From sequence record PZ445413.1: a DNA stretch of 51,285 bases. One strand, written 5' to 3'. A model generated the notes under the pieces. That model searched no databases, was not told where the DNA came from, and saw nothing but the letters and a program-made list of their open reading frames with translations. The DNA is from a phage. The translations under genes were made by a program, and so were the position numbers. Shown piece by piece: positions 6,164 to 50,695 of this stretch (positions within the stretch are counted from its first letter, which is position 1; every line of letters begins with the position of its first letter).

Positions 6164-6177
6164 AAATCTGTTGCACG

Positions 6178-20330: not shown

Positions 20331-20357
20331 AAAAGGAGCCTTTCGGCTCCTTTGTTT
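20331..20357. terminator. bidirectional terminator between convergent genes
   Basis: ggagcc tttc ggctcc flanked by A-run and T-run. Confidence 0.6.
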
Positions 20358-29267: not shown

Positions 29268-31268
29268 ATGGCAATTCCAAACATTAAAAAGCAATTATCT
29301 ACATTAGGCGATGCAGTGATAAAGGCGATTCAGGATCGTTTTACCGTTGGCGATATTAAGCCCTATCCTTATCAGTGCGTTGCATACGCTGAGATCGCAA
29401 AGCGACTGAGCAAATACAACGATCCGTTTTTCGTAAAGGCTTCCGTTTCCGCTGGTAAAACAATCATCTTTGCTATGGTTGCCGCGCAGTGTAAAAAGAT
29501 GGGGCTAAAAATGATGGTGCTGGCTCGCCAGGCTGAAATTGTGGATCAGGATTCAGAGGAGATCACAAACTTCGGCGTGCCAAACTCTATCTATTGCGCC
29601 GGACTCAACACCAAAAGCGCATACTTTCCAATTGTAGTTGGTTCCGAGGGAACTGTTGCAAATGGTCTGTTTAAGGCTCTTGGCGATTATGTGCCGCACG
29701 TTATCGGTATTGACGAATGTCACCAGGTCGATTGGGAAGATTTAGCGGATTCAATCGAAAACGAGGAAACATTCGAGCAAATGACCACTAAAAAAGGCGT
29801 TCGCGTCCTGGATGGTGATGGCTCGCAAGTTTTCACAAAAGACGGTGAGCCAATGGAGGGAACCGGACGCAGCCAATACACAATAATCATTCGTGAAATG
29901 CAGCGACGTTGCAAAGAGGCTTACGGGCATGAGTTGCGAATTTTTGGAATGACGGGATCGGAATTTCGCGGGGTTGTCCCAATTCTGGTTGAAGATAAAA
30001 AGCAGAAAGGTTTCTGGCGTGAGCAGGTAACGAACATTGATACCAATTATTTGATCGAATTCGGTTCTGTTGTGCCAACGAATTTTGGCAATGTTGATGG
30101 TCTGGGGTATGACCTTTCAGAGTTCACGGCATCAAGCGAGGATGGCGTTGCAGACTTCGATCAGAAAACACTCCGCAAGATGGAGGAGAAGATCCACAAT
30201 GACGCAACAATGACACAAAAAATTATGGCTCGCGTTCATGAGATCTGCAAAGACAGAAACGGCGTGTTAGTAACTTGCGCTGGTGAGCGACATTGCAAAG
30301 AGGCGGCGGCGGCTTTACCGCTTGGCACAACATACCGCATTATCACTGGCAAGACCGGAGAGAAACAGCGTAAGGAATGGTTACGTGAGGCATACGAGGG
30401 AAAAGTGAAATATATTTTCCAGGTTATGGCCTTAACAACTGGCGTTAACGTTCCGTTTTGGGATACATCCGTTATTCTTCGCAAAATCGGATCGCTCACG
30501 TTGCTGATTCAGCTTTTAGGGCGCGGAATGCGACTGCTTAAAAAATGGCATGTTGAGCAGGGATTCAAGAAAAGCGATCACCTTGTTTTAGACTTTGCCG
30601 GATGCATGGATGAATTAGGGCAACTTTATTTTGATCCTATCCTGGAGCAAGCGCAGTTTCAGCGCCGACACGACAACGGAAAAGATCCGAAACATTGCCC
30701 GATTTGCGGCACTGAAAATTCATTCTACGCTCGCCGCTGCATAAAGGTTGATGAAAATGGTAATCGGTGTGAACACTTCTGGAAATTTAGAGAATGCACA
30801 GATCAGATTGACCCGCGCACGAAAAAAGTTATTGTGCATGGTTGCGGAACAAAAAATGATGTTGTAGCGAGAATTTGCCGTCATTGTGATGTGTCACTAA
30901 TAGACCCTAACGAAAAGTTATCCGGCAAGCACTACACCAAAAACGATTGGTGCAATGTGAAATCGTTCCGTGTCGATATGACGAAAAACCAAAAAGGGAT
31001 CGTGTTCTGCTATGAATTGGAGGCACACGGAGAAACATTTAAGGCTTACGAAAAGTTTTTCCCTGAGTCAGATAGCCAGATCTGCAAAACGAAATGGCGA
31101 CAAACGGCGCTTAAACATATTCCAGATCGCAGAATTGCCGGAATGGTTGCCAGCTATCGCAATGCGCGTAAAATCATGAGTTATGCACATCATATTTTAC
31201 CGCCAGTTAAGGTTACGCATCGCAAAAATGCGAAAGGCGAGGATATTATTTATCATCGGGAGTTTTAA
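29268..31268 (+). CDS. SF2 DEAD/DEAH-box helicase with C-terminal zinc ribbons
   Basis: 666 aa; motif I SAGKT, motif II DECH; C-terminal CxxC pairs. Confidence 0.7.
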   Translation: MAIPNIKKQLSTLGDAVIKAIQDRFTVGDIKPYPYQCVAYAEIAKRLSKYNDPFFVKASVSAGKTIIFAMVAAQCKKMGLKMMVLARQAEIVDQDSEEITNFGVPNSIYCAGLNTKSAYFPIVVGSEGTVANGLFKALGDYVPHVIGIDECHQVDWEDLADSIENEETFEQMTTKKGVRVLDGDGSQVFTKDGEPMEGTGRSQYTIIIREMQRRCKEAYGHELRIFGMTGSEFRGVVPILVEDKKQKGFWREQVTNIDTNYLIEFGSVVPTNFGNVDGLGYDLSEFTASSEDGVADFDQKTLRKMEEKIHNDATMTQKIMARVHEICKDRNGVLVTCAGERHCKEAAAALPLGTTYRIITGKTGEKQRKEWLREAYEGKVKYIFQVMALTTGVNVPFWDTSVILRKIGSLTLLIQLLGRGMRLLKKWHVEQGFKKSDHLVLDFAGCMDELGQLYFDPILEQAQFQRRHDNGKDPKHCPICGTENSFYARRCIKVDENGNRCEHFWKFRECTDQIDPRTKKVIVHGCGTKNDVVARICRHCDVSLIDPNEKLSGKHYTKNDWCNVKSFRVDMTKNQKGIVFCYELEAHGETFKAYEKFFPESDSQICKTKWRQTALKHIPDRRIAGMVASYRNARKIMSYAHHILPPVKVTHRKNAKGEDIIYHREF

Positions 31269-31270
31269 TT

Positions 31271-31702
31271 ATGATTACTGATAAGGGAGATTACCTGGAG
31301 TATTACGAACGCGATCCGAGTGATACCAGGAAAGAGGATTCGCACCAGGTTGATTGCGTGGCGTGGTTGCGCCACCATTACCCGCAACTTTTATTTTGGC
31401 ACACGGTAAATGAGGGGCAAAAGACGATTACCAGCGCATTGAGGGATGAACAAGCCGGATTGCGAAAGGGTGTTTCTGATTTCGTTATCTTGATTGGTGA
31501 TCCGTCTTATAGCGATATGCCATACCCGTTTGCAGCTATTGAATTAAAGCGCGTGAACAAATCTGGAAAGGGAAAGGCATCACCTGTCAGCGACGAACAA
31601 AAGGCTTTTTTGCGTGATGTTCGCCAGCGCGGAGGATTTGCGGCTGTGGCTTATGGGTTCGAACAATTCAAACTGGCTATTGCGGATCTTTTCTATAAAT
31701 AG
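31271..31702 (+). CDS. VRR-NUC domain nuclease
   Basis: 143 aa; GVSDF...IELK (D...ExK) signature; overlaps helicase stop. Confidence 0.6.
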   Translation: MITDKGDYLEYYERDPSDTRKEDSHQVDCVAWLRHHYPQLLFWHTVNEGQKTITSALRDEQAGLRKGVSDFVILIGDPSYSDMPYPFAAIELKRVNKSGKGKASPVSDEQKAFLRDVRQRGGFAAVAYGFEQFKLAIADLFYK

Positions 31703-31743
31703 CATTTTTTGTTAAAACAGGCGCAACGGAATGCGCCATAATG
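31699..31743 (+). repeat. box cassette upstream of dam
   Basis: ATAGCATTTTTTGTTAAAAC with VRR-NUC stop TAG; hairpin ggcgca/tgcgcc; CATAAT. Confidence 0.5.
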
Positions 31744-31773
31744 CACACATCAAGACAAGCGAGGACATTTAAA

Positions 31774-32520
31774 ATGGCAAAAGATATTTTAGACAATGCA
31801 ACCATTGACGGCGTGGCGCAGGTTGACGAAATGGATTTTCACGAATTACAACACGGCAGATATTCAGATATTGCGTTGCGTTCTGGTGGTCATTATCAGC
31901 CAGTGAGGGAAAACACTTATTTCAAAGTTAGCGGCAACCGTTACGCCGGAAGTAATACGCCGGACGTTGTGCGCGACTTGTGGGCTACTCCTCGCGAGGT
32001 TGTAGAATATATGCAAGAGCGTTACGGTAAATATGATCTTGACGCGGCGGCAAGTGATGATAATAAAGTTTGCGATAAGTTTTACAGTAAGGAAACTAAC
32101 TGTTTAAAGCGCTGGTGGGGTTCCAAAAAACATGTTTGGCTTAATCCACCATACAGCAATCCAGATCCTTTTGTGTTAAAAGCAATTGAGCAAATGGAGC
32201 ACGATAACCAGATTGATATTTTATTACCAGCTGATAACTCAACAGCATGGTTTAAGGATGCACAGAAAAACGCGGCGGAAATTATCTGGATTACTGGCGA
32301 CACCTGGAAAGGAGAGGATGGGCGCGAATATTCAAGAACTGGACGCCTTGCCTTTATTTCTGGTCTTACTGGCGAACCAGTGCAAGGAAATAACAAAGGA
32401 AGTGTGATTTTTGTTATGCGCCAACTTAAAGAGGGTGAGCAACAGCAAACTCACTACGTTACAATTACTGAAATTTGCCCTTCTGTTAAGAATCGCAGAG
32501 CAAAGGCAAGGAGTTTTTAA
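31774..32520 (+). CDS. dam: DNA N6-adenine methyltransferase (phage Dam family)
   Basis: RBS gagga before ATG 31774; catalytic NPPY motif (WLNPPYSN); DLDAAAS motif. Confidence 0.75.
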   Translation: MAKDILDNATIDGVAQVDEMDFHELQHGRYSDIALRSGGHYQPVRENTYFKVSGNRYAGSNTPDVVRDLWATPREVVEYMQERYGKYDLDAAASDDNKVCDKFYSKETNCLKRWWGSKKHVWLNPPYSNPDPFVLKAIEQMEHDNQIDILLPADNSTAWFKDAQKNAAEIIWITGDTWKGEDGREYSRTGRLAFISGLTGEPVQGNNKGSVIFVMRQLKEGEQQQTHYVTITEICPSVKNRRAKARSF

Positions 32521-32631
32521 TATTAAATTTAATGCAAAAGTTTTATTTGTTACTGTTGCAGTGATGGCGGCTGGCGTGTTTTGTTCGGCTATGTTTGTAA
32601 AATTTGTTTATTCAATCGTTGAGGCGTTATC

Positions 32632-32865
32632 ATGAAAGAAAGAGCCTTGTTGCTTAATGAAACTGGCGAGTGGTTGTTATTCCGCGCAATGGTATGCGAG
32701 GCGCTAGATAAAAACCCGCACGCAAAGGAGATTATTGATTGCGACCCGTGGGAGTATTCAAGCGCGCTCGATATGAGCTTTGAAGAAACAAGGTCGTTAC
32801 CTCTTGAGAGGTGGCAAGAGCAGATCGCAAAAGACCTGCAAGAAATGATCGATATGCACAAATAG
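32632..32865 (+). CDS. hypothetical protein
   Basis: 77 aa ORF; stop TAG lies inside a conserved 20-bp box. Confidence 0.45.
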   Translation: MKERALLLNETGEWLLFRAMVCEALDKNPHAKEIIDCDPWEYSSALDMSFEETRSLPLERWQEQIAKDLQEMIDMHK

Positions 32866-32904
32866 CACGAAATGTTAAAACAGCCCCGCGAAAGTGGGGC
32901 ATAA
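32862..32904 (+). repeat. box cassette
   Basis: ATAGCACGAAATGTTAAAAC; hairpin ccccgcgaaagtgggg; CATAAT; leader aacgagga. Confidence 0.5.
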
Positions 32905-32937
32905 TCATTTCAACGAAACGAAACGAGGATTTGCAAA

Positions 32938-33093
32938 ATGAAAATTGTTAATGTTGAATATTTCAAAGATGCTCAATGGTTAGCAAGGGAATCATTGTTT
33001 ATGCTTGAGCGCAAAACCCCTAAAGTTATTGCGCAAATCCTTTGGAATGATGCAATGGAATTACTTAAAAAGGCTTACGGTTATGAAGATTGA
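32938..33093 (+). CDS. small hypothetical protein (51 aa)
   Basis: Not in ORF track (<60 aa); conserved leader aacgagga-N8-ATG downstream of box/hairpin cassette; stop overlaps next start. Confidence 0.4.
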   Translation: MKIVNVEYFKDAQWLARESLFMLERKTPKVIAQILWNDAMELLKKAYGYED

Positions 33094-33331
33094 AACCGGA
33101 CGCCAGGCAGTTTGGCAACATGCAAAAGAGTGCGGTTTAGATGAAGGGATCGCACTAATTGCTAAATATTTCGATATTAAAGACGTTAGTATTATTGGCA
33201 ACGGAAAGCTGTCATATATTGACGAAAGGCCGCGAAAGGTTCACAGGGTTCCGGCGATTCCTTCCCTGCAATTTTTCCGAGAGGAAAAGGCAAAAGAGGA
33301 CGCGGCAAAGAAAGCACAAAAAAGAAGGTAG
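33083..33331 (+). CDS. hypothetical protein
   Basis: ATG 33083 overlapping previous stop; basic K/R-rich C-terminus. Confidence 0.4.
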   Translation: MKIETGRQAVWQHAKECGLDEGIALIAKYFDIKDVSIIGNGKLSYIDERPRKVHRVPAIPSLQFFREEKAKEDAAKKAQKRR

Positions 33332-33340
33332 GTTGATTGT

Positions 33341-33415
33341 ATGCGTGGTTATTTTGCTGTAGTATTTGCGCCGATTGCTGGATGGCTGGCAATGTATTAT
33401 TTGGTAATGATGTAA
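33341..33415 (+). CDS. small hydrophobic peptide (24 aa, single TM)
   Basis: RBS gaaggtagg before ATG; MRGYFAVVFAPIAGWLAMYYLVMM; not in ORF track. Confidence 0.3.
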   Translation: MRGYFAVVFAPIAGWLAMYYLVMM

Positions 33416-33428
33416 GAGGAATTTTGAA

Positions 33429-34550
33429 ATGGCTGTACGAAAAATCACCGACGAGCAGTTTATTAAAGCACGCAAAGAGGGGAAAACCTACAAGCAGATC
33501 GCAGAGGAGTTCGGCCTTAATGTTCGCAGTGTCGAGCGTCGAGCGTCACGCCTTGCGCGTTCTGGTGAGACTGAAATTAAAGGCGCTCCAGGTTATGCAG
33601 TTGTGCGCGAGTCTGTTTTAACTCGCGCAAATGGTGAGGAAGTCATGAGATGGACTATCACCAATAAAGACAAAGAGCAATTAGAGGCTCTCATGCAAGC
33701 CGCTATGGATGCTTTCGCAGAGGAAGTGCCACGCTTGGAGCCGCAGCCGGAATCACGCGCTGATTATTCTGAAAGCCTGGCTTTATATCCGATCTTTGAT
33801 ATGCACCTGGGGGCAATGGCTCACAAGCATGAGTGCGGCGAGAACTACGACACCGCAACGGCGGAAAGGGTTATGAATAACTTTTTCGATTATGCAGTTA
33901 GTAAAGCGCCAAACAGTGAAAAGGCGGTGCTCCTGATTGGTGGCGATATGCTTCACAGTGACGGCCTGGAGGCTGTAACACCTGCAAGCGGTCACGTTCT
34001 GGATCAAGATAGCCGTTACGCAAAATTAGTTTACGTTGCAATCCGAGCCACGCGCCGCGCAATTAGCCTCATGCTGACAAAGCATAAAGAGGTTGAGGTG
34101 CAAATCATTGAAGGTAATCACGACCAATCAGGAATGATCTGGCTACGTGCTGCAATGGCGGCGGCATACGAAAACGAGCCTCGCGTAAACGTTGATGTGT
34201 CTCCGCGCGTTGTGCATCACACGCAATATGGTAAAACGTTCCTGGCTTACCATCATGGACATACGATCCGCAAGCCTGAAACGCTGTTGATGATGTGCGC
34301 GGCAGATTGGCGGGAGGATTTCGGAAACTCAAAGAGCATGTATGCGCATGTAGGCCATTGGCATCACCAGACCGTAACAGAAACGAGCCTGGGTATTGTG
34401 GAAGTTCATTCCACTATGGCAGCAAAAGACGCTTACGCGGCGCGCGGTGGTTGGCGATCTCGTCGTCGTGCGGCGGTGATTGTTTACGATAAGGAATATG
34501 GCGAGATTGGTCGCTTCATGTTCTACCCTGAAATGATGGAGATCAAATAA
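33429..34550 (+). CDS. HTH domain - calcineurin-like metallophosphoesterase fusion protein
   Basis: 373 aa; N-terminal HTH-like (YKQIAEEFGLNVRSVERRASR); phosphoesterase-like motifs DMHLG, GGDMLHSD, GNHD, HHGH. Confidence 0.5.
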   Translation: MAVRKITDEQFIKARKEGKTYKQIAEEFGLNVRSVERRASRLARSGETEIKGAPGYAVVRESVLTRANGEEVMRWTITNKDKEQLEALMQAAMDAFAEEVPRLEPQPESRADYSESLALYPIFDMHLGAMAHKHECGENYDTATAERVMNNFFDYAVSKAPNSEKAVLLIGGDMLHSDGLEAVTPASGHVLDQDSRYAKLVYVAIRATRRAISLMLTKHKEVEVQIIEGNHDQSGMIWLRAAMAAAYENEPRVNVDVSPRVVHHTQYGKTFLAYHHGHTIRKPETLLMMCAADWREDFGNSKSMYAHVGHWHHQTVTETSLGIVEVHSTMAAKDAYAARGGWRSRRRAAVIVYDKEYGEIGRFMFYPEMMEIK

Positions 34551-34717
34551 TGAAAGTTCGTTGCATCCGTAACACATCAAAATCTTTACCGTTTATCGTT
34601 GGCGCTGTTTATCGTGCCTTGAAACTTTGTGGTGATTTATACGAGATCCGCGACGGTCAAGGAAGCGCAATCCAGGCACCATTAAACGGACATTATCTGA
34701 CTTTTTCGCCACTATAA
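34550..34717 (+). CDS. small protein, member of KxxC...GKxY paralog family
   Basis: 55 aa; taATG overlap with previous gene; MKVRCIRN...VGAVYRAL motif; followed by terminator. Confidence 0.4.
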   Translation: MKVRCIRNTSKSLPFIVGAVYRALKLCGDLYEIRDGQGSAIQAPLNGHYLTFSPL

Positions 34718-34743
34718 AACATAATTAAATCATCAACTTGATA

Positions 34744-34771
34744 GGGGTTGGCATTTGCCAGCCCCTTTTTT
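34744..34771 (+). terminator. rho-independent terminator before lysis cassette
   Basis: ggggttggc attt gccagcccc followed by TTTTTT. Confidence 0.6.
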
Positions 34772-34847
34772 ATTGTTCCGTTTTCGCTCAAGGCTGGTTA
34801 GTATATATTCACATATTTATTGACAATTTAACTTTGAGGATCTAATC

Positions 34848-35063
34848 ATGAAAGAATTTATCAACGCCGCAACAATGGGTACTGGCGGATCATCATTAAC
34901 CAGCGCAGCAACGGGGCAGATCACAATTGCTGTTGCAAGCCTGGTGTTGATGGCGGCTTTTGGTTTATGGGGCGCTTATCTTCGCTGGAAAGATAGCAAG
35001 GCGTTTCAGGAAGCACTAGATCGCGGAGACATTCAAGAGGCAATCAAAATCAGGGGTAAATAA
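34848..35063 (+). CDS. holin (pinholin candidate)
   Basis: 71 aa; single strong TM segment; charged C-terminus; RBS gagga; immediately upstream of SAR endolysin. Confidence 0.55.
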
Positions 35064-35557
35064 TGACGATTAAGACGAGAATCACGGCGGGTGCTTTTGG
35101 CGTGGCGCTCGCCTTAACTTCTCCGCTACTGGAGGAGATAGAGGGAATCAGGTATAAGCCTTACAAGGATATTGCTGGAATCTGGACGGTATGCGCTGGC
35201 ATCACAGGAAAGGATGTGGTTTTAGGCAAGACGTACACGCAGCGCGAATGCGATGCGCTATTAGCAAAGCATATCAAGATCGCAAAGGATGAAGTTGATA
35301 AGCGCGTTAAGGTGGATATTCCAGACACCATGCGAGCGGCTCTATACTCATTCACATACAACGCCGGAATCGGAGCGTTTCGCAAGTCAACCATGCTGAA
35401 ACTGATTAATCAGGGGCGATTGTATGAGGCGTGCGATCAGCTATGGAGTTGGACGTATTACACAAACCCGCGCACCGGAAAAAAAGAGAAGTCGAAAGGC
35501 TTACACAACCGCCGCGCTGTTGAGTTCAAATATTGCGTTAAGGATCTGAAAAAATGA
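35063..35557 (+). CDS. SAR endolysin (GH24 T4-type lysozyme)
   Basis: 164 aa; N-terminal weakly hydrophobic Gly/Ala-rich segment; E-x8-D-x5-T catalytic spacing ([16 protein letters not shown]). Confidence 0.7.
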
Positions 35558-35946
35558 AACGAGTAATCACAGCAATTGCAGTTGCGGTAATGCTTTCCGG
35601 TTGTTCGGCATCAAGCGCGCTGACTGGTTTGATCGGCAGTAAGCCGGAAATCACAGCACAAGCCGGAGCGGAAAACGTAAAACAAACGGTAGGCGTAACG
35701 GCAAAGCAGGACACCAGCAGCAAGCAGGAAAGCACGATTAAGGATTCAGCCGTTGGCAAGGTTGACACCTCAAACAAAAAGAAGGTGAGCGCTTCAAGCA
35801 TTCAGGCTGAAACCATAACGGCGGATAAGATAGAGATCCGTAATTCAGATAGCGGCCTGGATTGGCAAACGAGTGTTTTGTTTTTCGCTGCAATCGCTAT
35901 CATGCTGGTTGCTATCGGTTACGGTAGAAACAAGAAAGGAGCCTAA
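35554..35946 (+). CDS. unimolecular spanin (u-spanin, T1 gp11-like)
   Basis: 130 aa; N-terminal lipoprotein signal with lipobox LSGC plus C-terminal TM helix; overlaps endolysin stop. Confidence 0.7.
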
Positions 35947-35960
35947 CGGCTCCTTTTTTT
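35938..35960. terminator. bidirectional terminator after spanin gene
   Basis: ggagcc taac ggctcc plus T-run; A-rich on the other side. Confidence 0.55.
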
Positions 35961-36186
35961 ATGCGTCTTGCCACTCATGAGATTCATTTGTTGGCTTGTC
36001 GTTTTCGTCGTATGGTTTAATGTAGACTTCGTAAACCTCCCAGCCAAAGCGTTTTGCAATATCGTGCTCAGCTTTCAGCGCGTCGTAATGGCTCCATCCA
36101 TTAGCCTTGTTGTAAACGGTTGGAACCTCGATTGATTGACCGTTTGCAAAGTGGTTTACGCGAACTGCAACAAATTTGGTGCTCAT
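35959..36186 (-). CDS. hypothetical protein
   Basis: 75 aa; preceded on minus strand by box cassette and RBS aaaggaaa; convergent with spanin across shared hairpin. Confidence 0.45.
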   Translation of the reverse strand: MSTKFVAVRVNHFANGQSIEVPTVYNKANGWSHYDALKAEHDIAKRFGWEVYEVYIKPYDENDKPTNESHEWQDA

Positions 36187-36223
36187 GGTGATTTCCTTTT
36201 GTGTGTTTCGTTTCGATGAAACA

Positions 36224-39873: not shown

Positions 39874-40098
39874 TCAGAATGGAAAACAACGCTTGCATGA
39901 TGGATCGAAATTGCAGCCGCAATCGTTAATGATTGTTGTCGGATCTGCAAGAATAGCGCCACATTCTTGATCCATGTCCATTGCACCCAACGCATCATCA
40001 AGGCTGATTAATTTATACGCAACCTCTAACGCAGCCTCTTTGTTTAGTCCAGCCGCCTCCGCTTCATGCAGTCGCGCAAAGAAACCATCTTGAGCCAT
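39874..40098 (-). CDS. hypothetical protein
   Basis: 74 aa; RBS gaggtga. Confidence 0.4.
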   Translation of the reverse strand: MAQDGFFARLHEAEAAGLNKEAALEVAYKLISLDDALGAMDMDQECGAILADPTTIINDCGCNFDPSCKRCFPF

Positions 40099-40160
40099 TT
40101 AATTTCACCTCGCAATTATTGTTGGGCGGCGCAAAATCCGCCCTTTGAACCAATCAGGAA

Positions 40161-40382
40161 TCAGAACCATTTTTCAATCAAGAAAGACAGATCATCAATC
40201 ATCGCGTAAGCATCGCTTTCCGTCATGCGGCGAATCTTTCCGCCTGGGTGCTCGCCTACCGCGTAGCCTGTTTTGATTTTGGTAATCGTCAACTGATGGA
40301 AACCAGAAGCGCGATCCATTTTGAGCACCGCTTTACCGTTTGCTTTGACCAGCTTCATGATTGATTCAGTTTTGATTTTCAT
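40161..40382 (-). CDS. small hypothetical protein
   Basis: 73 aa; preceded on minus strand by box + hairpin containing TGgTATAAT + RBS. Confidence 0.4.
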   Translation of the reverse strand: MKIKTESIMKLVKANGKAVLKMDRASGFHQLTITKIKTGYAVGEHPGGKIRRMTESDAYAMIDDLSFLIEKWF

Positions 40383-40411
40383 TGCTTTATTTCCTTGTTT
40401 CGTTTGTTGAT

Positions 40412-40460
40412 GCGCCCATTATACCAGGGCGCGTGATTTCGTTTTAACAAAAAGTGCTAT
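40412..40460 (-). repeat. box cassette with extended -10 in hairpin loop (minus strand)
   Basis: minus ATAGCACTTTTTGTTAAAAC then gcgccc-TGGTATAAT-gggcgc. Confidence 0.55.
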
Positions 40461-40461
40461 T

Positions 40462-40659
40462 TCAAAGATATGTGATTTTATCTTCCGTTACCCACTCGCA
40501 GCGCTGACGCTCTACAACCTTTTTGTAATTCCGGTTGATGTGATGCGTGTTGTAGTCCTCAAACGCCTGGATTGCGTTAACCAGGTTGTTAGCGGTTGCA
40601 ATTAGCGTTTTGTCGTTCCTGTCAATCCTGCTTACAAGATACGCAGCATATCTAATCAT
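40462..40659 (-). CDS. hypothetical protein
   Basis: 65 aa; ATGA overlap with upstream gene. Confidence 0.35.
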   Translation of the reverse strand: MIRYAAYLVSRIDRNDKTLIATANNLVNAIQAFEDYNTHHINRNYKKVVERQRCEWVTEDKITYL

Positions 40660-40889
40660 TTAGGGAGCCTTATTTCGTTGTACTCGCAAAACTCGATCAC
40701 GTAAGGGCACTCTTTCGGCTCCTCCTGGCCTTTCATCACCTCGCAACCCTGATTGAATAGGTTGCAGTGTTGGCACAGCCAGCCGCCGCAATGCTCCTCA
40801 ACTATCGACAACCCATTGCACCGACCGCCGCCGAACCTATGCGGGAAATCGTAAGCGGTGCAGGTGCATGTTACCTGGTGGCGTGCCAT
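40656..40889 (-). CDS. cysteine-rich protein (putative zinc-binding)
   Basis: Start at internal Met overlapping upstream stop (taATG); ~13 Cys in 77 aa. Confidence 0.4.
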   Translation of the reverse strand: MARHQVTCTCTAYDFPHRFGGGRCNGLSIVEEHCGGWLCQHCNLFNQGCEVMKGQEEPKECPYVIEFCEYNEIRLPK

Positions 40890-43037: not shown

Positions 43038-43289
43038 ATGAACCACGCAGACATTCGCAAAGTAGCAGAGCAGATCGTTGAAATCCTGGGCGAACACCGC
43101 CCTAACTCTAAATGCTGGGATCTGATTATCAAAGATGTTCATCACCTGCAACAGCCCCGCGTTCGCCTGGTGTCCGGTGATTTGAATATTGAATATATTG
43201 TCGGATCGCCAGCGCTTGAAACGGCAATGAATGCGCTTATGCGTGAGGGTGAGAAATTCACAGTTGAACCAGTGGAGGGCAAGAAATGA
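43038..43289 (+). CDS. hypothetical protein
   Basis: 83 aa; RBS aaaggaga. Confidence 0.45.
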   Translation: MNHADIRKVAEQIVEILGEHRPNSKCWDLIIKDVHHLQQPRVRLVSGDLNIEYIVGSPALETAMNALMREGEKFTVEPVEGKK

Positions 43290-43606
43290 ACAAATTCAAA
43301 GTAGCGTTAGGCGCAATCCTGGTTGTTGCTGGCGTGGTGATGCTGACTGGTTGCGATAGCGACACCCGCACGCCGGAACATGCACGCATTAGAATGCAGG
43401 TTGAAACAGGAGCAGATCACGACCGCGCGAGTGTGCGCAAGTTAACTGAATTTGCTGATGGCCTGGCGTACAACGACAAGCGCGGGATTTACATCATCAC
43501 CGATAAGCAGACGGGCAAAGAGTACATCGGCGTTTCTGGTGTTGGTATCACAGAAACCGGATCGCACGCTTGCGGCAAGGGTTGCACACGCCAGGACGAG
43601 CGATAA
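43286..43606 (+). CDS. lipoprotein (superinfection exclusion candidate)
   Basis: 106 aa; signal peptide with lipobox LTGC. Confidence 0.5.
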   Translation: MNKFKVALGAILVVAGVVMLTGCDSDTRTPEHARIRMQVETGADHDRASVRKLTEFADGLAYNDKRGIYIITDKQTGKEYIGVSGVGITETGSHACGKGCTRQDER

Positions 43607-43689
43607 TGAAAGAGCCTGGACAATTTGCAATAGGAATTTTTATCTGGCTTGCGGTCATATTCTGGATCGCGTGGATTATCGCAAGATAG
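43606..43689 (+). CDS. small hydrophobic peptide (27 aa, single TM)
   Basis: taATG overlap with lipoprotein gene; MKEPGQFAIGIFIWLAVIFWIAWIIAR; stop TAG inside box; not in ORF track. Confidence 0.3.
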   Translation: MKEPGQFAIGIFIWLAVIFWIAWIIAR

Positions 43690-44100: not shown

Positions 44101-44246
44101 TTCACGTCCTAATCCTGGTGATTTCCACCATGCAAGGCGAGGCGGTTACAACGCAGGAATTCCACAGCAAAGCGCGTTGCTTGGAGGCTCGCGAGGTGGT
44201 TATGAAACACGCATACAATGCAAGGGCGTTTTGCTTACTGAAATAG
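44097..44246 (+). CDS. small hypothetical protein (49 aa)
   Basis: ATGA overlap with previous stop; stop TAG inside box; not in ORF track. Confidence 0.3.
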   Translation: MIHVLILVISTMQGEAVTTQEFHSKARCLEAREVVMKHAYNARAFCLLK

Positions 44247-44317: not shown

Positions 44318-44497
44318 ATGAAAAAATTAGGTTTAGGTTTGGGCTTTGGATTCGTCGCTTTTTGGATTGCTGCTGTTATCGGCTGGATCATGAATATCGT
44401 TGCAATGTTTGGCGAGATTTCTACTAACGAGCTAATCATTCGCGCGGTCGGCGCTGTTATCGCCCCTGCTGGTGCAATCATGGGCTGGTTCATGTAA
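44318..44497 (+). CDS. small membrane protein (59 aa, two hydrophobic segments)
   Basis: Leader aaacgagga-N8-ATG; Gly/Ala/Ile-rich hydrophobic sequence. Confidence 0.45.
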   Translation: MKKLGLGLGFGFVAFWIAAVIGWIMNIVAMFGEISTNELIIRAVGAVIAPAGAIMGWFM

Positions 44498-47006: not shown

Positions 47007-47096
47007 CATGCACGCACAACCACCATTTGATTTTCACAAGGCCATGATTATTGGCCTTACTATCCTAACTGTAATGTATGGCATAAGGGGTGTTTT

Positions 47097-47348
47097 ATGG
47101 TTCGCAATGCACTAAAACGACTGTTTAAACCGGAGTACCGCGTAATCATCGAAATGAGCGAAAACGGCGCGGTGTACATCCAACGCAAAAACATTTTCGG
47201 GCGTAAGTGGCACTATGTTAGCGACGTATTAGGCGCTATTGAGTTTGAATCGGTAATGAGCGCGTTTATGTTCATTGATGTTATGCACGAATACCGCGAG
47301 TATGAAGTAAGCATGTTTATCCGGTTTGATGGTGAGGAATTCGAATAA
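47097..47348 (+). CDS. hypothetical protein
   Basis: 83 aa; RBS aaggggtg. Confidence 0.45.
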   Translation: MVRNALKRLFKPEYRVIIEMSENGAVYIQRKNIFGRKWHYVSDVLGAIEFESVMSAFMFIDVMHEYREYEVSMFIRFDGEEFE

Positions 47349-47536
47349 TGTGGAATTGGAAAAAGCTGTTGTTAACGTTGGCTATCGCGTTGATTGGTAT
47401 CGTGATCATGGAGTCAGGTTTTACAAACCACTTAGGCGCGGCGGTGCTTGCCCTGGCCTACTCCATACCCGCTTACTATGACGGCAAAAAGGCCGGAGGG
47501 CGTGAAGTGTTCGAATTAATGAAGCGCCGAAAATAG
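47348..47536 (+). CDS. small membrane protein (62 aa)
   Basis: taATG overlap; two hydrophobic helices; stop TAG inside box. Confidence 0.45.
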   Translation: MWNWKKLLLTLAIALIGIVIMESGFTNHLGAAVLALAYSIPAYYDGKKAGGREVFELMKRRK

Positions 47537-50464: not shown

Positions 50465-50695
50465 ATGTTAATGTTTTCAATTGGTTTTCTCGTCGCCGTT
50501 ATCCTGATGATGTTTGCTGGCTCACTGGCTACAAAATACGCAGTTAAAAAAGGCTGGTACGCCTCCGCAATGTGGAGCGATAAAGACAAAGTTTGGAAAG
50601 TGCGCGGCTCATACCTGGCGATTTCCGGCAAGATTTTTACAGGCATTCAAACCGAAAAGCTAACAGGCGTTAAATCGGTCAAGTATATGGATTGA
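50465..50695 (+). CDS. small membrane protein
   Basis: 76 aa; N-terminal TM helix; followed by terminator. Confidence 0.45.
   Translation: MLMFSIGFLVAVILMMFAGSLATKYAVKKGWYASAMWSDKDKVWKVRGSYLAISGKIFTGIQTEKLTGVKSVKYMD

Follow-up and report, generated by a model that had tools for sequence, protein, structure and literature searches.

Comparison with related genomes shows that most of the short hydrophobic open reading frames (ORFs) found in this phage genome are real genes, conserved among relatives and encoding very small membrane-type proteins. Several have been missed by annotation, and three of the seven (at 44318, 47348 and 50465) are already annotated in the related phages W011D, TLS or T1. 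What is new is c1, a conserved yet essentially unannotated gene of 23–24 aa with no existing family; the comparisons below indicate that it is a real gene, conserved across the T1-like phages sampled. We favor the reading that these ORFs are genuine, maintained small membrane-protein genes with c1 acting as a transmembrane ligand, and give it a probability of about 0.55. Throughout, the window denotes the whole 51,285-nt stretch of DNA that was analyzed (record PZ445413.1).

Seven short hydrophobic ORFs in a T1-like genome

The window is the genome of a lytic, T1-like siphophage of the family Drexlerviridae. It is close to Escherichia phage vB_EcoS_W011D, a member of the same family (Tempevirinae, Changchunvirus; W011D below), with 99.4% identity over 32–36 kb and 97% identity across 75% of the length of 42–51.3 kb. 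T1-like phages are among the commonest coliphages and serve as models and as candidates for therapy; over half of their genes lack an assigned function. Gene order in the window is that of T1 and TLS, with many small genes 5' of terS followed by the structural genes, a replication/recombination module that includes helicase, dam and an SbcD-like phosphoesterase, and then holin, endolysin and spanin. Around 20 records titled “Campylobacter phage” (mostly unannotated, around 50 kb) and the record of “Streptococcus phage MBBL140” match the early-region and replication/lysis-module DNA of the window, and look like mislabelled or contaminant T1-like genomes. The seven ORFs are as follows.

32522–32635, + strand: c7, homologue of a 35–37 aa single-span gene between dam and the next gene; start codon ATT
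33341–33415, + strand: c1, 24-aa single-span hydrophobic microprotein gene (MRGYFAVVFAPIAGWLAMYYLVMM), directly 5' of the SbcD-like nuclease gene
43606–43689, + strand: c2, 27-aa single-span microprotein (MKEPGQFAIGIFIWLAVIFWIAWIIAR); start overlaps the upstream stop (TAATG)
44318–44497, + strand: c3, 59-aa protein with two hydrophobic segments, first gene 3' of the promoter-like unit at 44246
47008–47115, + strand: c6, 35-aa single-span microprotein, filling the gap between a 132-aa and an 83-aa gene
47348–47536, + strand: c4, encoding a 62-aa membrane protein whose C-terminal tail is basic; ATG overlapping the stop of the gene before it (TAATG)
50465–50695, + strand: c5, 76-aa protein with an N-terminal transmembrane (TM) helix and a conserved basic C-terminal domain, last gene before terS

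All seven short ORFs proposed by the initial annotation are present in the window. The coordinates and lengths it gave for c2, c3, c4 and c5 are exact, and c1 is, as described, an ORF of 75 nt including the stop, encoding 24 aa behind a strong Shine-Dalgarno (SD) sequence. The ORF placed at 47008–47112 (34 aa) is real and in fact ends at 47115, giving 35 aa. At 32564–32635 (~23 aa) an ORF does exist, with the start wrongly assigned: it is the 3' part of a 37-codon frame that begins at 32522. The proposal that the ORFs have plausible ribosome-binding sites holds for c1 (SD/anti-SD duplex −8.6 kcal/mol) and fails for the ATG at 32564, which has no SD (+1.5 kcal/mol). A single TM-like helix is found in five of the seven, the exceptions being the 59-aa protein with its two hydrophobic segments and the 62-aa protein with one strong and one weaker segment. 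Their assignment to early regions is borne out for the five ORFs at 43.6–50.7 kb, upstream of terS, and not for those at 33341 and 32522, which sit in the replication/recombination module beside the lysis cassette.

We next considered how far hydrophobicity alone identifies such genes. The window holds 36 ATG-initiated ORFs of 20–80 aa with a 17-residue window of mean hydropathy at least 1.8, compared with 16 +/- 4 in block shuffles; of the 36, the non-coding strand carries 20. Small hydrophobic ORFs are therefore common here, so that hydrophobicity and an ATG are not evidence by themselves and the case is carried by conservation and position. The seven ORFs are set apart by their gap-filling position, by lying on the coding strand, by an SD or a stop/start overlap, and by conservation. 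Their uncharged hydrophobic spans measure 15–23 residues; in the single-span class (at most 50 aa), the uncharged runs are 22 residues in c1, 20 in c2, 20 in c7 read from 32522 and 15 in c6 (17-residue window hydropathy 1.84), so that all four contain the bilayer-spanning hydrophobic stretch of a small single-span protein. Six of the seven are conserved as ORFs in relatives, the check that the initial annotation had itself named for its proposal of genuine small membrane-type peptide genes; c1, c2, c3, c4, c5 and c6 show codon-position bias and open frames in diverged relatives. A literature search found nothing on these peptides or on T1-like transcriptomes.

A conserved 24-residue gene upstream of the SbcD-like nuclease

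We surveyed c1 in 80 IMG/VR loci anchored on the downstream phosphoesterase, with T1 and TLS in addition. The immediate surroundings of c1 in the window comprise the following features.

32866–32915, + strand: degenerate copy of a promoter-like unit, with GTTAAAAC, a hairpin and CATAAT; judged against the 14 copies described in the next section
33325–33333, + strand: c1 SD region (GAAGGTAGG), in which AGGT ends 7 nt before the ATG
33429–34550, + strand: SbcD/Mre11-like phosphoesterase (T1 gp16 homologue), the constant 3' neighbor of c1
34743–34766, + strand: terminator-like hairpin with a T run (10-bp stem, 7 GC pairs, then TTTTTTATTGT)
34848–35063: holin, in the lysis cassette with endolysin and spanin

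An intact c1 homologue is found in 41 of the 80 nuclease-anchored loci as well as in T1 and TLS, and the genera that carry one are Changchunvirus, Hanrivervirus, Warwickvirus, Tlsvirus and Tunavirus, along with Klebsiella phages. The homologues are 21–27 aa long (up to 31 aa when read from an upstream in-frame ATG) and nearly all hydrophobic; in Hanrivervirus and Warwickvirus the upstream in-frame ATG gives a c1 ORF of 29 codons. In the 41 loci, c1 ends 1–24 nt before the nuclease ATG, including in lineages whose nuclease is only 61–65% identical, and a motif scan found one instance per locus at a constant position. The 37 loci without c1 form a separate group, with a nuclease 63–66% identical and contigs mostly of 47–57 kb. 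Only two of the 43 c1-bearing loci are disrupted: L037 (about 2413–2487) has a nonsense codon at position 3 (TAC to TAA), and L039 (about 2396–2470) a frameshift from a 1-nt deletion before the MY motif. Either c1 is dispensable in some genomes or these two are sequencing errors.

Substitution patterns point to selection on the peptide. All 29 distinct 69-nt c1 cores are open, with mean pairwise differences per site of 0.42 at first, 0.25 at second and 0.54 at third codon positions. The pN/pS of close pairs, 0.40 in frame as against 0.77 and 1.15 off frame, represents moderate constraint only, and the sequences compared are related by descent. The 15 diverged versions are likewise all open, with a mean GRAVY of 1.84 in the coding frame and of 0.61 and 0.16 in the other two; hydrophobicity is retained in all 15 of these lineages, and T occupies 60% of second codon positions. 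The consensus, M-(W/R/K)-R/x-hydrophobic-...-P-...-(A/S/G/T)-...-M-Y-x-x-(V/I)-M, has an invariant Tyr19, a nearly invariant Met23, a proline near residue 10–11 and small residues at ~13–16. Conservation of this kind, at particular positions of a helix of 23 residues, gives weak support to the idea of a specific partner.

Searches found no Pfam, PHROG or NCBIfam family for c1. A c1 profile compared with PDB sequences gave nothing significant (best PsbY, E 0.9), and additional variants of c1, c2, c6 and c7 gave no PHROG match below E 0.04. Eight of ten records inspected leave c1 unannotated (W011D, Sazh, KLB26, T1, TLS, LeonhardEuler, ISF002 and herni), and the T1 record lacks it even following recent re-annotation. 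In PHB17, no annotated feature lies under the c1 match. It appears as “hypothetical protein” in two PHANOTATE-style records from Hanrivervirus and Warwickvirus, ESh4 URY10757.1 and Tuinin WWD12285.1.

The c1 initiation signal ranks in the top 3.3% of all window ATGs by SD/anti-SD duplex energy. In relatives, c1 is preceded by GGAG or GAGG at −8 to −12 or begins in a stop/start overlap, as in T1, where c1 lies at 40740–40811 and its ATG overlaps the orf17 stop (ATGA). The promoter-like unit at 32866–32915 heads a transcription unit of 32938–34717 in which c1 is the third ORF, and the hairpin at 34743–34766 closes this unit just before the holin promoter region. The gene 5' of c1 is non-homologous between the window and T1, which makes the nuclease the constant neighbor; annotations in W011D and T1 call it phosphoesterase, DNA repair exonuclease or SbcD-like. 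Its own SD (AAGAGGA, −6.0 kcal/mol) overlaps the c1 stop codon. The 55-aa gene 3' of the nuclease (34550–34717) was considered as a second membrane partner and rejected, as it is not hydrophobic in the window genome.

Everywhere c1 lies just 5' of the nuclease gene or of an inserted HNH gene. TLS has an HNH endonuclease gene between an intact c1 and the nuclease. The site of this HNH homing-endonuclease insertion is seen at 1944–2500 in two TLS-type survey loci (L027/L028) and at 39965–40636 in the TLS record. As annotated, the TLS HNH gene (endY) begins far enough upstream to cross c1 in another frame, a start that is probably over-extended.

We also evaluated whether the DNA at c1 might be conserved as RNA. 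RNAalifold returned 0 pairs across 14 lineages, and single-sequence folding gave z = 0.02; on this basis, an RNA element and a leader peptide or attenuator at this position were rejected. The lack of conserved RNA secondary structure indicates that conservation acts at the level of the protein.

Other small genes and a promoter-like repeat

The remaining ORFs differ in distribution and in how far they have already been described. Three belong to annotated genes. The 59-aa c3 is a member of phrog_6006 (E 6.9e-15, profile positions 9–58 of 58) and matches W011D_29, which is annotated 12 nt shorter; its Sazh homologue is 66% identical, with 14/7/23 differences by codon position. The 62-aa c4 matches W011D_21 and has a PHB17 homologue 74% identical (16/5/29 differences by codon position), with a weak match to phrog_5815 (E 0.0067). 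The 76-aa c5 belongs to Pfam DUF7299 (score 99 bits, gathering cut-off 27; positions 5–77 of the 77 in the profile) and also matches phrog_5976. It corresponds to W011D_10, TLS gp28 (“putative membrane protein, 1 TMD”) and T1 orf55/CPTT1_023, and has homologues in 23 loci; a search of a large protein database returned five close relatives, all DUF7299 and unnamed. An AF2 model of c5 from six sequences had a pLDDT of 58.6 overall, too low to support a fold search, with the N-terminal helix (2–28) at pLDDT 74–78. By profile search, c1, c2, c6 and c7 fall in none of DUF7299 and PHROGs 6006, 5976 and 5815.

The only c2 homologues found are those in W011D and Klebsiella phage HazelMika, the latter of a different genus; c2 is unannotated in both. 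Compared with HazelMika, c2 has 17 nt differences, distributed 3/1/13 by codon position (binomial P = 3.4e-4), and support for c2 as a coding gene comes from this single independent comparison. The gene upstream of c2 in HazelMika is unrelated and again forms a stop/start overlap, and the c2 stop codon (TAG) lies inside the next promoter-like unit. From this arrangement, c2 looks like a small mobile gene travelling with the promoter-like element that holds its stop codon. A degenerate DNA pattern for c2 recovered only unrelated chance matches in IMG/VR. Directly 5' of c2, at 43286–43606, is a small lipoprotein-like gene with a lipobox signal peptide (…VVMLTGC…).

In the case of c6, which overlaps the 83-aa gene by 19 nt, matches occur in 161 phage records (tblastn). 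Its motif is PPFDFxK, a TM helix and LWFxxH; differences from PHB17 are 5/1/9 by codon position; and in two relatives inspected the order is dmk, a ~130-aa gene, c6 and the next gene. BananaBelafonte (CDS0013) and JLBYU09 (_20) list c6 as a CDS, and the W011D annotation lacks it. The homologue JLBYU09_20 (survey locus L113, 668–799) is labelled “putative FeoB-associated Cys-rich membrane protein”. A Cys-rich C-terminal motif defines the FeoB-associated family. We rejected the label, since c6 sequences have no cysteine and no Pfam/NCBIfam match, and the homologue has no PHROG match.

The c7 family is restricted to a subset of relatives (L006–L009, L012, L021, L038 and KLB26), shares the motif GFCSYA...K..E, and has its start codon at the dam stop or immediately past it, preceded by a GGAG SD; the KLB26 member, MVRO040, is annotated with a TM domain. 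In the window, the start at 32522 is ATT, compared with ATG in W011D, and this is the sole base difference between the two copies of c7. The GGAG SD before 32522 is kept (−8.0 kcal/mol). The ATG at 32564 lies inside c7, and starting there leaves only 12 uncharged residues, too few for a membrane span. The window copy would thus be either poorly translated from AUU or inactive, and the ATT itself would reflect a natural knock-down, a pseudogene or a sequencing difference.

Separately, we observed a 17-mer, GCACTTTTTGTTAAAAC, with 14 copies in the window at no more than 3 mismatches, compared with 0.5 expected, and 11 copies in T1.

6176, 9927 and 20639, − strand: 17-mer copies
29195, 31702, 36248, 38416, 39153, 40441, 41563, 41923, 43689, 44246 and 48714: 17-mer copies

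Each copy is preceded by (A/G)ATA, and ~18 nt after the 17-mer most copies have CATAAT, TATAAT or TATAGT, followed by a leader resembling CATCGAAACGAAAC and then by an SD and ATG. The minus-strand copy at 20639 precedes the minus-strand cor-like gene, while those at 6176 and 9927 lie inside the plus-strand structural block. The repeat is a family-wide promoter-like unit marking the starts of transcription units, with a spacing unlike that of a standard −35/−10 promoter; a literature search found no description of it.

A further ORF at 20769–20924 (+ strand) encodes 51 extremely hydrophobic residues (MKNKSLFIYIYLFVSFCYLCFMGFWLVVVISLCVMVILFMCIYSYISGANR) in a T-rich gap between the cor-like and recE-like exonuclease genes. 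It has matches in 109 phage records (tblastn), mostly unannotated, and no obvious SD, and is either a gene or conserved T-rich DNA. The newly added small T1 gene CPTT1_049 was considered as a relative of this ORF and found to be unrelated.

Possible roles and known counterparts

In the reading we favor, the ORFs are maintained T1-like phage genes whose predicted products are inner-membrane proteins of 24–76 aa, each with one hydrophobic helix or two. That they are translated and inserted in the membrane, and in what topology, is here inferred from the sequences. The c1 gene would share a transcript with the SbcD-like nuclease gene and be translated from its own SD, or through stop/start coupling in T1. 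The peptide would insert as a single helix whose basic N-terminus is cytoplasmic (N-in), an orientation suggested by the N-terminal basic residue. Because of the conserved proline, the small-residue face, Tyr19 and Met23, c1 may act by helix packing, as a transmembrane “ligand” on a larger host or phage inner-membrane protein whose activity it would alter; its binding partner and its effect on the host are speculative. The other small proteins would be early-region membrane proteins with accessory or host-interaction roles, and their distribution is patchier. A more specific version, which we regard as tentative, makes c1 a core T1-like host-interaction factor, a minimal helix that would bind and inhibit or re-program one inner-membrane protein conserved in Enterobacteriaceae, or a phage component such as the pinholin.

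Small membrane proteins that work in this manner are established in bacteria, where AcrZ, MgrB, MgtS and CydX act by binding larger membrane proteins, and YoaJ, YpdK and YohP of E. coli (21–30 aa) are small single-span inner-membrane proteins. The phage ORFs resemble this group (20–50 aa, with one helix making up nearly the whole protein), and both have been missed by gene callers and recognized through conservation and SD sequences. Unlike the bacterial proteins, the window genes are phage-encoded with predicted expression in lytic infection, and no sequence relationship was found in Pfam, NCBIfam or, for c1, the PDB comparison above.

The peptides might instead be toxin-like or holin-like, with helices that oligomerise and depolarise or permeabilise the inner membrane non-specifically, leading to host shut-off, exclusion of superinfecting phage or altered lysis timing. 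Type I toxins that act in this way include Ibs, TisB and Hok. The initial annotation had suggested host-takeover, exclusion or toxin-like roles, and c1 does resemble IbsC (19 aa; MMRLVIILIVLLLISFSAY) in being very short (23–24 aa) and nearly all hydrophobic, with a basic residue near the N-terminus and a tyrosine at position 19, near the C-terminus. The likeness proved to be compositional only: against the c1 profile IbsC reaches 1.0 bit, a score equalled or exceeded by 54% of 2000 shuffled IbsC sequences, indicating no homology. Unlike Ibs, c1 continues for four residues after the tyrosine and has a conserved proline. A crude consensus-based promoter scan of 31000–36200 showed no minus-strand promoter-like site 3' of c1 from which a Sib-like antisense RNA antitoxin could be transcribed across the gene. 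The conserved proline, tyrosine, methionine and small-residue positions exceed the needs of generic hydrophobicity. As to lysis, the pinholin/SAR-endolysin/spanin cassette is in the transcription unit following that of c1, which fits such a role, but the terminator-like hairpin separates c1 from the lysis genes; with its place in the preceding unit and no charged tail, c1 does not fit the pattern of a holin or antiholin. We consider a toxin-like or holin-like action unlikely.

T4 Imm and Sp, T1/N15 Cor, and holins and antiholins are likewise small membrane proteins of lytic phages, some of them early, and are larger (60–100 aa) or lipoproteins. These are exclusion or lysis-control proteins; no similarity to them was detected, and the window phage has its holin and the following cor-like gene as separate genes elsewhere.

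20357–20617, − strand: cor-like lipoprotein gene in the position of T1 cor, with a lipobox signal peptide (…AVALTGC…)

Improbable, in our view, is that c1 is a translated upstream ORF that only delivers ribosomes to the nuclease gene, its peptide having no function and its hydrophobicity coming from T-rich sequence. The geometry is compatible with this: in all lineages the c1 stop falls within the 1–24 nt before the nuclease ATG and overlaps the nuclease SD (TAAGAGGA, TAAGGAG), the nuclease is the constant neighbor while the upstream gene varies, and a fixed position just 5' of the nuclease or of the inserted HNH gene fits equally well a role in translating that gene. Against it stand the amino-acid constraint (in-frame pN/pS, invariant Tyr19 and hydrophobicity kept across the diverged lineages), the persistence of an intact c1 in TLS despite the intervening HNH gene, the good SD that the nuclease itself possesses, and the finding of no conserved SD-sequestering structure. 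That some or all of the ORFs are chance, untranslated ORFs in intergenic DNA is very improbable: such ORFs are indeed abundant in the window on both strands, c2 has a weak SD (−4.0 kcal/mol) and one independent homologue, and the 32564 version of c7 has neither an SD nor a full TM span, but the c1–c6 ORFs survive heavy nucleotide divergence with codon-position bias, and all the ORFs fill coding-strand gaps with an SD or a stop/start overlap.

Genuine small membrane-protein genes, the reading preferred here, would extend a known kind, as small membrane proteins are familiar from phage early regions; the TLS and T1 records label several early genes “putative membrane protein, 1-2 TMD”. Within the window, c5 joins T1 orf55 and TLS gp28 in DUF7299/phrog_5976, and c3 joins phrog_6006. 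Annotation corrections follow regardless of function, as c1, c2 and c6 are missing in W011D and the start of c7 is defective in the window genome. If c1 targets a specific host membrane protein, it could offer a compact tool or an antibacterial lead. For the T1-like phages themselves, c1 adds a concrete gene to the conserved set and shows length cut-offs hiding conserved microproteins; were it a core host-interaction factor, it would be among the smallest family-wide conserved functional phage genes, skipped by standard gene callers.
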